Sequence record: OR062943.1
DNA: 64,000 nt
Origin: Escherichia phage 241Ecol014PP
Direction: 5' to 3' (one strand)
In this document: piece after piece, positions 44,039 through 46,516 of the stretch
Numbering within the stretch: position 1 is the stretch's first letter
Layout: the number at the start of each line of letters is the position of its first letter
Program-made: the position numbers and the translations under genes
The notes under the pieces: model-generated
The model's input: only the letters and a program-made list of their open reading frames with translations
What the model was told of the DNA's origin: nothing
Database searches by the model: none

Positions 44039-44067
44039 TTGACAAACTTTGCTTAACAGTGTAATAT
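44039..44067 (+). promoter_or_regulatory. sigma70-like promoter TTGACA-17-TAATAT upstream of tRNA cluster
   Basis: Direct reading. Confidence 0.5.
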
Positions 44068-44125
44068 TGTAAACATGGTCTCCCACCTTTTCTGGCGGCT
44101 AAGGTGTAAAAGAAAGCCACCCAGT

Positions 44126-44200
44126 GCCCTGTTAGCTTAGTGGATAAAGCAGCGGCCTTCTAAGCCGTTGACACTGGTTCGAGTCCAGTACGGGGTGCCA
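44126..44200 (+). tRNA. tRNA-Arg (anticodon TCT), CCA encoded
   Basis: Manual cloverleaf: acceptor GCCCTGT/ACGGGGT (two G-U), D GCTT/AAGC, anticodon loop CTTCTAA. Confidence 0.75.
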
Positions 44201-44330
44201 AGTTCTTTTTAATGTAGCTTACTTTAGCAGAGTAAATCTTCGGCAAGTGGCGGTAACCACTTTACCGATACCTCATAGTTAGTGGTGAGAACACTAGCTA
44301 TTTTAAAAAGAATTTAAATATTAGTATTTA

Positions 44331-44418
44331 GGTGAGTTAATTCCGTAGGGGTAGCGGGGCAGACTGTAAATCTGTTATCATTGCGATTCGGGTGGTTCGA
44401 CTCCATCACTCACCACCA
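44331..44418 (+). tRNA. tRNA-Tyr (anticodon GTA), class II, CCA encoded
   Basis: Acceptor GGTGAGT/ACTCACC; anticodon arm GCAGA-CTGTAAA-TCTGT as in recalled E. coli tRNA-Tyr. Confidence 0.8.
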
Positions 44419-44532
44419 AATTTATATTTTTAAATGCATAAATCATACAGATAATGGCATTGATATTTATCGTCGTTTATACTAGTCACTAACTGCTCGA
44501 AAATCAGTGTCATTATCAGTATTGTTTATAAA

Positions 44533-44623
44533 AGAGGGTAGGGAGCAATGGTGCTCAAGCGGTCTTGAAAACCGTCCCGTTGAGGATGACTCGATGATGG
44601 TTCGATTCCATTATCCTCTGCCA
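44533..44623 (+). tRNA. tRNA-Ser (anticodon TGA), class II, CCA encoded
   Basis: Acceptor AGAGGGT/ATCCTCT; anticodon loop CTTGAAA; long variable arm. Confidence 0.7.
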
Positions 44624-44721
44624 TATTGTTGACCTTGTAATTAAGCGAAAGCCGGAAGCAGAACCGGATTATCAAATGTTACAGTCGTCATCGCCGACTA
44701 GCAACATGGTCAACATACTGA

Positions 44722-44820
44722 GCTAGGTAAGCCCTTTGGCAAGGGCGAGGATTTTTAATCCTGAAAATAGACGAGGTAGTCGTTGAATACATAGGTGGTT
44801 CGATTCCACCGCCTAGCACC
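44722..44820 (+). tRNA. atypical ~97-nt tRNA-like element; anticodon unassigned (possibly TTT)
   Basis: Perfect acceptor GCTAGGT/GCCTAGC and T-arm GGTGG-TTCGATT-CCACC, but 65 nt between acceptor and T-arm. Confidence 0.4.
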
Positions 44821-44825
44821 TTTTT

Positions 44826-44901
44826 GCTGATGTAGCACAATTGGTAGTGCAATTGATTTGTAATCAATAGGTTGCAGGTTCAAGTCCTGCCATCAGCACC
44901 A
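44826..44901 (+). tRNA. tRNA-Thr (anticodon TGT), CCA encoded
   Basis: Full canonical 76-nt cloverleaf; anticodon loop TTTGTAA. Confidence 0.85.
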
Positions 44902-44902
44902 T

Positions 44903-44977
44903 GGCCCTGTAGCTGGAAGGTTCAAGCAAGCGACTCATAATCGCCAGACGGTGGTTCAATTCCACCCAGGGCCACCA
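44903..44977 (+). tRNA. tRNA-Met or tRNA-Ile2 (anticodon CAT), elongator type, CCA encoded
   Basis: Acceptor GGCCCTG/CAGGGCC paired at 1-72; anticodon loop CTCATAA. Confidence 0.8.
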
Positions 44978-44988
44978 AATAATAAATA

Positions 44989-45411
44989 CTCCGCGTAGCT
45001 CAGCTTGGTAGAGATAATCAAAGATGCACAAATGCAGTCGTTGTGGGGAAGAAGATCCATGTAAATTTTATGGTCATAAAAAGACTATATGTGGGAAATG
45101 TCACAATGAGTACACCATGAATCTTGGGAGGCAGAAACGACAGTATGCTGTAGACAAGTTAGGCGGTAAATGTATCAATTGTGGGTTCGATAAATGGATT
45201 GTTTCTTTAGATATTCACCATTTAGACCCTAAAATTAAAGACTCTAAATTTGCTCAAATGAGAGGTTGGAGTCTGCAAAGAATTGATAATGAAATTAAAA
45301 ACTGTGTATTACTTTGTAGAAATTGTCATGCTGCCGTACATGCAGGACTTTTAGAACTACCATAACTTTGGGATCAGGAGGTCGAGTGTTCGAATCACTC
45401 CGTGGAGACCA
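44989..45411 (+). tRNA. class II tRNA gene interrupted in the anticodon loop by an HNH endonuclease ORF (halves 44989-45027 and 45363-45411; anticodon GCT/Ser if loop is AUGC+UAA)
   Basis: 5' half CTCCGCG-TA-GCTCAGCTTGGTAGAG..CAAAG; 3' half CTTTG-GGATCAGGAGGTC-GAGTGTTCGAATCACTC-CGTGGAG-A-CCA; acceptor 7/7, anticodon stem 5/5. Confidence 0.5.
45024..45365 (+). CDS. HNH endonuclease located inside the split tRNA gene
   Basis: CINCG...LDIHHLDP...N...LLCRNCHAAVH; ATG at 45024 directly after anticodon-stem strand, TAA at 45363-45365 directly before its complement. Confidence 0.75.
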   Translation: MHKCSRCGEEDPCKFYGHKKTICGKCHNEYTMNLGRQKRQYAVDKLGGKCINCGFDKWIVSLDIHHLDPKIKDSKFAQMRGWSLQRIDNEIKNCVLLCRNCHAAVHAGLLELP

Positions 45412-45457
45412 CTTTCAGTTATACTTTAAACATATACAAACAAAAGGAACCTTTAAA

Positions 45458-45727
45458 ATGTATACACTTAAAATTGTAGAGCGTGTAAATCCAACCCATA
45501 CCGTAGATTTTCGTGACGATTTCAATCCTCTGGCTGTAAATCTTCGAGAGTCATATCATGAACTCAGCTGCGATGCAGTGGTGGTCTTTTTTGAAGACAA
45601 CTCTGAAGGGGCGGTAGCTTGTGTTGTTGATAGTGAGCAGAAGTTTTATATTTACAGAGATGTAGATGCATACTTGATGAATGAAAATGCAGTTACTGTT
45701 AGAATCATCCACCGAGTGCCTCGATAA
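45458..45727 (+). CDS. hypothetical protein
   Basis: Start trimmed to ATG after AAAAGGAAC; ORF track start at 45323 overlaps tRNA half. Confidence 0.45.
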   Translation: MYTLKIVERVNPTHTVDFRDDFNPLAVNLRESYHELSCDAVVVFFEDNSEGAVACVVDSEQKFYIYRDVDAYLMNENAVTVRIIHRVPR

Positions 45728-45783
45728 GTATTAGTCTCCTTTTAGTTAGTTTCGATCTATTTAGGTTACTCAATTTTAACCCG

Positions 45784-45816
45784 CCCCGTTAGCTGTATAG
45801 CTGCGGGGTTTTTTTC
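45784..45816 (+). terminator. rho-independent terminator (CCCCG...CGGGG stem, T7 run)
   Basis: Direct reading. Confidence 0.65.
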
Positions 45817-45833
45817 GTTTCTGGAGCCTTAAA

Positions 45834-46232
45834 ATGATTTCAGTTTTAACATGGCTGAGCAGGTATAGAGGGATCATAAAAGGTTTAGTTTTTGCAGCTG
45901 CGATAGGTACAGCTTATCTTGGGGCCGTGTATTGGTTTAACTCTAAGCTTAATGATGCCTACCAAGAAGGTGTGTCAGCAACAGAGTTAAAGTGGGAACG
46001 GATCCTTGATCAGCAACAAAAGCAGGCCGACAAAATTAAAATGGGCCACGCAGAGGAGGTTAAAAACCTTGAAAAATCCCTTTCTGACCTGCAGGATAAA
46101 TTAAATATGGCTGAGAAGGCAGGTAAAGAAAAGCAGATTATTTACCTCCAATCACCTGAGGGTAAGAAGTCAACACTCCCTGATCAGCTTATAGATATTT
46201 ATAATGAGAGTATTAATCAGGAGGGTCGATGA
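45834..46232 (+). CDS. i-spanin-like protein (N-terminal TM, coiled coil)
   Basis: GLVFAAAIGTAYLGAVYWF TM then charged coiled-coil region. Confidence 0.55.
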   Translation: MISVLTWLSRYRGIIKGLVFAAAIGTAYLGAVYWFNSKLNDAYQEGVSATELKWERILDQQQKQADKIKMGHAEEVKNLEKSLSDLQDKLNMAEKAGKEKQIIYLQSPEGKKSTLPDQLIDIYNESINQEGR

Positions 46233-46516
46233 GAGTTGCTGCACTGTTTATTGTGTGCTTGTTATTGTGTGGGTGTGCAACCAGCGTTGAGAGAGAATAC
46301 AAGATTGACCCTCCAGATGTAGGAAGGTTGATTGTTAAACCCCCGGAAGGTGCCATGAAACCACCTGCTAAAGCTATACCTTTAAAGAAAGGTGCGCCAG
46401 ATGCGGTGAATTCTGGCATTATGAGGGATAATAATCTGTCTTGTAGCAATGATAGAGCTAAATTGATCATTTTGCAAGACTATATTAGAACACTGTTTCC
46501 AAAGGAGAGAGGTTAA
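46229..46516 (+). CDS. o-spanin-like outer-membrane lipoprotein (proline-rich)
   Basis: Signal peptide with LLCGC lipobox-like Cys; KPPEGAMKPPAKAIP. Confidence 0.55.
   Translation: MRVAALFIVCLLLCGCATSVEREYKIDPPDVGRLIVKPPEGAMKPPAKAIPLKKGAPDAVNSGIMRDNNLSCSNDRAKLIILQDYIRTLFPKERG

Follow-up and report, generated by a model that had tools for sequence, protein, structure and literature searches.

Does a transfer RNA (tRNA) gene that carries a complete open reading frame (ORF) between its two halves still yield a tRNA? This question is raised by positions 44989–45411 of a stretch of 64,000 nucleotides (nt) from Escherichia phage 241Ecol014PP (sequence record OR062943.1), which is called here the window and comes from an rV5-like myovirus; its region 44100–46300 is 96–98% identical to Vequintavirus genomes. 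Directly after a tRNA-Met gene, a tRNA-like stretch of 25 nt comes first, followed by a 113-codon ORF that encodes an HNH endonuclease and then by a second tRNA-like stretch, of 45 nt, which closes with ACCA at 45411. An original prediction, made from the letters of the window, described a tRNA gene split exactly at the anticodon loop and left three options, namely an unusual intron, a split tRNA assembled in trans, or a tRNA gene inactivated by insertion of an endonuclease gene. It is the third option that the intact allele of related phages supports: the locus probably represents a free-standing HNH homing endonuclease gene (HEG) that has entered an rV5-like phage’s tRNA-Pro(UGG) gene where the D arm meets the anticodon stem, leaving a two-piece pseudogene.

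The question is settled by the comparison, proposed together with the original prediction, with phages that lack the insertion. At the same spot, between tRNA-Met and the same downstream ORF, an uninterrupted tRNA-Pro(TGG) of 77 nt stands in Pr121LW, FFH2, ECML-10, JEP1, and ime, and the annotation of ECML-10 assigns it a Cove score of 81.1; a tRNA-Pro has also been reported as encoded by rV5 itself (PMC3606486). The intact allele reads CTCCGCG TA GCTC AGCTTGGTA GAGC G CCTGA TTTGGGA TCAGG AGGTC GAGTG TTCGAAT CACTC CGTGGAG A CCA. Relative to this allele, nt 1–24 (44989–45013) and nt 32–76 (45367–45411) are unchanged in the window, CGCCTGA (nt 25–31, which comprise the final base of the D stem, nt 26, and all of the anticodon stem’s 5′ strand) is lost, and 353 nt (45014–45366) are gained, comprising a 10-nt leader, the ORF, and one C. 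The junction GGTAGAG/CGCCTGA/TTTGGGA has become GGTAGAG/353 nt/TTTGGGA, and the lengths agree (423 − 77 = 346 = 353 − 7). As this alignment of alleles shows, the tRNA-Pro gene is broken, with nt 25–31 replaced by 353 nt. The remnants match both ends of an allele that is intact in about 100 phage records, so their assignment as pieces of that gene is far beyond chance. Judged from the same comparison, the locus is neither an intron nor a working split tRNA.

The two remnants, the leader, the ORF, and the single C all lie on the plus strand. The 5′ remnant of tRNA-Pro(UGG) (nt 1–24; 44989–45013), identical to the first 25 bases of the tRNA-Pro of Pr121LW and FFH2, consists of the acceptor strand CTCCGCG, TA, the D stem GCTC, the D loop AGCTTGGTA, and, from the D stem’s 3′ strand, GAG. 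The leader ATAATCAAAG (45014–45023) is not tRNA sequence, is absent from intact alleles, and contains a weak ribosome-binding site at best; the leaders of homologous split loci vary in both length and sequence. The C at 45366 stands at the boundary between the stop codon and the anticodon loop, where the resident allele has tRNA nt 31, an A. The 3′ remnant (nt 32–76; 45367–45411), which matches the final 45 bases of the intact allele without a difference, comprises the anticodon loop TTTGGGA (45367–45373), the stem strand TCAGG (45374–45378), the variable (V) loop AGGTC, the T arm GAGTG-TTCGAAT-CACTC, the acceptor strand CGTGGAG, and A73-CCA. The acceptor halves CTCCGCG and CGTGGAG pair at seven of seven positions with one G-U, and they are present, as are the T arm and the encoded CCA, just as first described. 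Among five insert-bearing genomes compared, the only change in the remnants is found in the A135 phage (locus L014), where the last G of TCAGG, at the position equivalent to 45378 of the window, is substituted.

It is around the anticodon that the anatomy departs from the first description. The true anticodon loop lies whole in the 3′ piece, with the anticodon TGG at 45369–45371, and the gene is not split at this loop; nor do the loop nucleotides supply the start and stop codons, as had been supposed, since the intact allele places the loop outside the ORF. The letters of the proposed anticodon stem CAAAG/CTTTG do exist at 45019–45023 and 45366–45370, but this helix pairs a part of the leader with the single C and U32–G35 of the real loop. 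The supposed class II variable-arm hairpin consists of the orphaned TCAGG and the ordinary 5-nt V loop AGGTC, and the D arm as first drawn requires a mismatch and two linker nt. No anticodon stem-loop can form in cis, because ATAAC, the five bases 5′ of the TTTGGGA loop, is unable to pair with TCAGG. A replacement for the lost strand was sought in the insert: neither end fits the sequence [CT][CT]TG[AG] needed against TCAGG, and an internal CTTGG is not contiguous with the anticodon loop and so provides no such strand.

As to the ORF (45024–45365; ATG to TAA, 113 amino acids), its identification as an HNH endonuclease gene is borne out by matches to Pfam PF01844 (HNH; 23.8 bits against a cut-off of 21.4, E 4.9e-5) and PHROG 2255 (“HNH endonuclease”; E 5.1e-27). 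The protein begins with a four-cysteine (Cys4) zinc ribbon at the N terminus, which is followed by a Cys4 HNH core, and all eight cysteines together with H65, H66, H102, and H106 are invariant in a 30-sequence alignment of the family that includes the window protein. Relatives with solved structures were sought by sequence, and none was informative.

A protein 100% identical to that of the window occurs in 13 Vequintavirus records, i.e., navn, YP-6, VB-EcoM-WM, and ten that are labelled “Campylobacter phage” and classified as Vequintavirus, and GenBank annotates the product in these 13 records as “hypothetical protein”. This is to be compared with about 100 phage records that bear the intact tRNA-Pro allele at an identity of at least 95%. 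One and the same species includes C7, which bears the insert, and FFH2 (type), which is free of it. Among insert-bearing genomes, the insert diverges by 1–2 of 353 nt (0.3–0.6%) and the flanks of about 2 kilobases (kb) by 1.8–4.8%; the density of single-nucleotide polymorphisms (SNPs) in the region is uneven, so that the low divergence of the insert supports, and does not decide, the youth of the element. Taken together, these comparisons indicate that the insert is younger than its genomic background and show it to be patchily present among close relatives. No second tRNA-Pro has been found in the window or anywhere in the genome of navn, which is complete and has six tRNA calls; this phage bears the insert and was isolated on Escherichia coli K-12; as navn is without any tRNA-Pro, such insert-bearing phages lack that tRNA.

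A search of 5.8 billion proteins has revealed a large family of homologues, and 101 loci with a homologue, drawn from phage records, public assemblies, and IMG/VR contigs, were classified by a script. At 72 of the 101 loci, the 3′ end of the ORF overlaps or abuts an intact tRNA-Pro, which is TGG in all cases except one CGG. An overlap of 15 nt is typical, and it places the stop codon within the D loop (for example, CGGAGTA TC GCC TAA CTTGG... in L030). The ORF is situated within a split tRNA at 15 loci, directly downstream of an intact tRNA-Pro at five, in some other arrangement at eight, and runs off the contig at one. Around the overlapping “canonical” loci, no paired split remnants were found within the 1.2-kb flanks; orphan 5′ tRNA fragments stand upstream of the ORF in some of the overlap loci (L023, L100, and L093). 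In T5-like phages, distant homologues with 30–44% identity over part of the length of the window protein likewise adjoin tRNA genes. This distribution of loci shows that the endonuclease family is tightly linked to tRNA-Pro genes, and makes it a strong candidate for a lineage of endonucleases directed at a single tRNA species, Pro-UGG.

The 15 split loci represent nine distinct arrangements, with a different acceptor sequence in each. Apart from the window itself, these are L018, L106, L019, L107–109, and L110 (identity 85%, 79%, 77%, 71%, and 69%, respectively), L062/63 (58%), L094 (55%), and L101 (50%). The acceptor halves pair at seven of seven positions and the T arm is intact in nine of nine arrangements, many of which also encode CCA; examples of the halves are CACTGCA/TGTGGTG, CAGGGTG/TATCCTG, CGGAACT/AGTTCCG, CTTCGTT/AACGAAG, and CTGGTAT/ATACCAG. 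The 5′ junctions, one of them near nt 26, fall at about nt 21–28 of the tRNA and the 3′ junctions at nt 31–33 (the window, L018, and L107) or more 3′, the anticodon loop being gone in L019 and L106 and the entire anticodon arm in L110. In a neighbour-joining tree, the window protein groups with those of L018, L106, and L019, all of which are split and none of which has a spare tRNA.

Two of the other split arrangements contain an additional tRNA. At L107 (860–1410; also L108 and L109), a cassette of an intact tRNA-Pro(TGG) followed by the HNH gene lies inside a different, broken tRNA-Pro (CTCTCCA.../...TGGAGAG ACCA), and, to judge from its layout, this element appears to bring a replacement for the tRNA-Pro that it destroys. 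At L062/L063 (892–1600), a split tRNA (GGGGAAT.../...ATTCTCC) holds an intact tRNA-Ala(TGC), a terminator-like hairpin, and a family member of 162 amino acids.

From these data, we infer that the window protein is capable of cleavage and homing. The enzyme would cut or nick the DNA of the tRNA-Pro gene around nt 20–32, as the position of its own gene suggests, and in a mixed infection repair from a HEG-bearing genome would copy the HEG in, the conserved tRNA blocks TAGCTCAGNNTGGTAGAG, TTTGGGA, and the T loop serving as short homology arms. The insertion would destroy the enzyme’s own presumed target, and the carrier would thereby be protected. The tRNA-Pro of Tequatrovirus (T4-like phages, about 240 records) is about 90% identical to the rV5-type over nt 1–62, so that the presumed target is common to unrelated coliphage groups. 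The differing small junction deletions within the clade of the window suggest imprecise repair on entering a new phage lineage. The C at 45366 suggests carry-over from the tRNA-Pro of an earlier host: the junction TAR-C-TTTGGGA is also found in L018, where C31 would pair with G39.

Most family members would escape the loss of tRNA-Pro, either because the ORF ends in the first ~15 nt of an intact tRNA-Pro or because the cassette carries an intact tRNA; the clade of the window, L018, L106, and L019 seems neither to keep nor to carry one. The tRNA-Pro would be dispensable enough for insert-bearing phages to be isolated in the laboratory, and the cost of the insertion may simply be paid because the phage tRNA is dispensable. 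In the overlap layout, RNase P, by cutting where the tRNA begins, would remove the final codons from the HNH message and so damp its expression, as has been proposed for the T4 endonuclease SegB (PMC2330249).

Several points weigh against this explanation. The presumed target site is deduced only from the position of the gene. Many family members are about 160–175 amino acids long and possess an N-terminal helix-turn-helix domain, which the 113-amino-acid window protein does not have, so that its site specificity is uncertain. A comparison of five genomes with the insert and five without it revealed no flanking SNP consistently tied to the insert and no clear co-conversion tract. Moreover, the tRNA finder ARAGORN accepts the joined sequence, and the case against splicing accordingly rests on comparison and junction logic, not on the tRNA scan. 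Finally, the perfect acceptor and T-arm pairing in nine of nine split arrangements, L110 and L019 with their missing anticodon arm among them, also fits selection on the acceptor/T-arm structure; it can be accounted for as well by insertions of recent date or by flanks renewed with every homing event.

Such selection would be expected if the remnants acted as an RNA handle for the endonuclease message, an explanation that we regard as unlikely. The HNH message would be enclosed by a fold of the acceptor stem and the T arm, with contacts between the D loop and the T loop, much like the engineered “tRNA scaffold” but of natural origin; the message would be trimmed from the tRNA-operon transcript by RNase P and the 3′-end enzymes; and the paired ends, or a helix between the leader and the anticodon loop, would stabilise the messenger RNA or throttle its translation. 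The minimum-free-energy fold of 44989–45411 does keep the acceptor stem of 7 base pairs (bp) and the T arm (z = −2.0), and both features persist throughout the nine split arrangements, even where the anticodon arm is lost, in many cases together with CCA. The leaders of the window (TCAAAG, 45018–45023) and of L019 (CCCAAAGG, 1217–1224) contain motifs complementary to the anticodon loop of tRNA-Pro. Also counted in favour of a handle is the documented regulation of SegB, mobE, and I-TevI-III, homing endonucleases whose expression is controlled through processing of the transcript and through hairpins that mask the ribosome-binding site (PMC2330249, PMC2988022).

However, the CAAAG/CTTTG helix that such a handle might use is absent from the predicted fold and has no counterpart in L018, L106, and L110, and L019 retains its leader CCCAAAGG although the anticodon loop, the partner of this motif, is lost. 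CAAAG/CTTTG has been rejected as a conserved closing helix on these grounds, and the complementarity of leader and anticodon loop may be no functional helix but a scar left by repair at the anticodon stem-loop, which is palindromic. Flank renewal per homing event explains the perfect pairing equally well. In the window, the remnants do not differ from the resident allele and the insert looks young, so that no selection need be invoked for their good condition.

It is very improbable that the insert is an intron, whether of group I or of an unknown kind, which is spliced out to give a functional Ser-GCU or Met-CAU tRNA. Besides the 5-bp complementarity CAAAG/CTTTG that flanks the ORF, this possibility draws on ARAGORN, which, when run with its intron option, makes a tRNA call over 44989–45411. 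Both the Ser(GCU) join and the Met(CAU) join pass up to 110% of the default threshold, the same as the neighbouring tRNA-Met, and a level of 120% is passed by the intact tRNA-Pro; the bare remnants are rejected at the default and receive no more than an unassigned call when the threshold is lowered to 80%. The identity of the spliced tRNA is nevertheless arbitrary, as the two joins score alike and the homologous split loci are called with the same option as Lys, Ser(aga), Asn, or Leu, or not at all. The product would have a mispaired D arm with two nt, and not one, between the D and anticodon stems, the acceptor features of tRNA-Pro, and an “anticodon stem” built from tRNA-Pro loop bases. The Ser(GCU) tRNA that removal of 45028–45362 had been predicted to leave comes from a forced cloverleaf, the ancestral gene being tRNA-Pro(UGG). 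Spliced Ser(GCU) and Met(CAU) tRNAs were rejected on comparative grounds, the ARAGORN test being non-discriminating.

The junctions and the content of the insert speak against any splicing. The uninterrupted allele is not the sum of exon 1 and exon 2, for CGCCTGA is in neither piece, and with these 7 nt missing tRNA-Pro cannot be regained by any excision. The last letter of the 5′ piece is G (...GAG) and not U, and the insert ends in C (...TAAC) and not in the terminal G of group I introns. Of the 353 nt of the insert, 342 are occupied by the ORF, which leaves no room for a ribozyme core. Covariance scans, which had been suggested as a check, were run with Rfam on the genomic sequence (the whole window at gathering thresholds, and 44900–45500 at E ≤ 10). 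They revealed no group I or group II intron over the insert or the tRNA pieces at either setting, in agreement with the earlier failure to recognise a convincing group I core, and the idea of an unusual intron has to be abandoned for want of both the 7 nt and an intron signal. The tRNA model RF00005 matches the neighbouring tRNAs and nothing over 44989–45411, insert included, even at E ≤ 10.

A split tRNA-Pro, in which the two halves would work without a covalent link by way of the acceptor stem, as in Nanoarchaeum, can hardly be credited either. In Nanoarchaeum equitans, split tRNAs are divided after nt 37 into complete halves, which are joined by means of complementary extensions and the archaeal splicing endonuclease. 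The window shares with them separate 5′ and 3′ tRNA halves with complementary acceptor strands, and its 3′ piece retains the intact anticodon loop, the T arm, and CCA; in contrast, complete halves, extensions, and the splicing endonuclease do not apply to the window. The 5′ strand of the anticodon stem is absent (nt 25–31 are missing), and ATAAC cannot take its place against TCAGG, so that no anticodon stem-loop can form. Furthermore, the anticodon loop itself is gone in L019, L106, and L110, and the split loci display no complementary leader and trailer, no bulge-helix-bulge motif, and no conserved closing helix. To our knowledge, the archaeal splicing endonuclease is absent from bacteria. 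As for an assembly artefact or a chance juxtaposition, nothing was found in its favour and its probability is negligible, given that 13 phage records, deposited independently, agree in both the insert and its junctions and that the same architecture recurs in unrelated metagenomic contigs.

The favoured explanation, a HEG inserted in tRNA-Pro, can be set beside several known systems. T4 SegB and the T5 enzymes (F-TflI, F-TflII, F-TflIV) are products of HEGs in phage tRNA clusters; SegB, a free-standing GIY-YIG enzyme absent from close relatives, recognises a tRNA-gene sequence and spreads with neighbouring tRNA genes, and processing of the tRNAs in the transcript that they share with it is proposed to damp its expression (PMC2330249). 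The window resembles the SegB case in having a selfish endonuclease gene in a phage tRNA array with a patchy distribution among relatives; however, SegB is of the GIY-YIG type and is encoded between tRNA genes, whereas the window protein is of the HNH type and is encoded inside one. SegB recognises a T-loop motif common to many tRNAs, while the window family is linked to a single species, Pro-UGG, and the activity of SegB is proven, while that of the window protein is predicted from sequence. The T5 enzymes share with the window protein both the HNH type and a location of their genes among phage tRNA genes, and Akulenko et al. reportedly described them in 2004 as HNH endonucleases of the tRNA gene region. 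They differ in being encoded by intergenic ORFs, and the passages that deal with them describe no disruption of a tRNA gene.

A protein-coding gene is affected in Aeromonas phage Aeh1, where the free-standing HNH gene mobE splits the ribonucleotide reductase gene nrdA into “genes in pieces” (Friedrich et al. 2007, via PMC2988022). As this case is summarised there, an HNH gene splits a host gene without an intron, as in the window, but the two polypeptides reassemble and function is kept, whereas the window contains an RNA gene minus an essential helix strand, with no visible route back. Group I introns, some with endonuclease genes, reside in the anticodon loops of bacterial tRNAs, such as cyanobacterial tRNA-Leu and tRNA-fMet, tRNA-Ile of Azoarcus, and tRNAs of Patescibacteria (PMC13011429, PMC13168695). 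Such introns likewise interrupt a tRNA gene near the anticodon loop, at times with an endonuclease ORF, but they have a ribozyme core and precise junctions, and the tRNA is restored; the window has no core and is 7 nt short. The window locus lacks every tested defining feature of group I introns and archaeal split tRNAs. It is set apart from the known systems by its location inside the body of a tRNA gene, by its link to one tRNA species, and by the non-functional state in which the gene is left. A literature search of incomplete coverage, and hence of little weight as evidence, yielded no account of a HEG inside the body of a phage tRNA gene or of a link to tRNA-Pro.

For the first claim, the outcome is deflationary, as it yields no new intron class and no bacterial split tRNA. 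On the explanation favoured here, the locus would be a clear case of a HEG inside an RNA gene without an intron, and its interest lies mainly in the family-wide tie of an endonuclease lineage to tRNA-Pro genes. The wider family has three layouts, in which the gene is broken, a rebuilt gene is overlapped, or a spare tRNA is carried. If the family-level view is true, most members mend their own damage by encoding the 5′ part of the tRNA in the 3′ end of the ORF, and the window represents the unrepaired form. The family also bears on the shuffling of tRNA arrays between phages, and loci of this kind will mislead tRNA finders run with intron options, which will report a tRNA of arbitrary identity that contains an intron.

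The tRNA array upstream of the locus extends over 44126–44977, where ARAGORN detects Arg-TCT and Ser-TGA, then an odd tRNA-like gene of 99 nt, and then Thr-TGT and Met-CAT. An extra tRNA at 44331–44415, found by Rfam (39 bits), corresponds to Tyr-GTA in relatives; ARAGORN misses it at the default threshold and detects it at the 90% threshold. Upstream of the array, on the plus strand, a consensus scan identifies a sigma-70-like promoter, TTGACA-17-TAATAT (44039–44067), as a match to the consensus only, and in ECML-10 the distance from an annotated promoter to tRNA-Arg is likewise 59 nt. The predicted promoter at 44039–44067 probably drives a transcript that contains both the tRNAs and the HNH ORF. 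The spacing between tRNA-Arg and tRNA-Tyr (region 44201–44415) is about 127 nt longer in the window and Pr121LW than in navn and FFH2, and no database record spans the combination of this extra segment and the HNH insert that the window has (best coverage 94%).

The 99-nt tRNA-like gene (44722–44820, plus strand) has a 7-bp acceptor stem, a good T arm, an extra arm of about 30 nt, and an irregular anticodon arm. ARAGORN reports it as “???” with a 4-base anticodon or as Gln with a 5-nt “intron”, and it is below the threshold of the Rfam tRNA model. Its counterpart is conserved in relatives and is annotated as “tRNA-OTHER” in navn and ime. A few kb off the tRNA array in rV5-like phages, there is a gene annotated in the navn record (45139–46056) as “putative RNA ligase and tail attachment protein”; it occurs with or without the insert and is therefore not evidence for rejoining of the tRNA.

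Finally, the original prediction had named introns with group I motifs in nrdD and terL, and Rfam at gathering thresholds finds no group I intron in the whole 64 kb. The terL gene of rV5 has been reported to occur in three parts with an endonuclease (PMC3606486), and the choice between an intron and a bare endonuclease insertion may apply to the nrdD and terL interruptions too.

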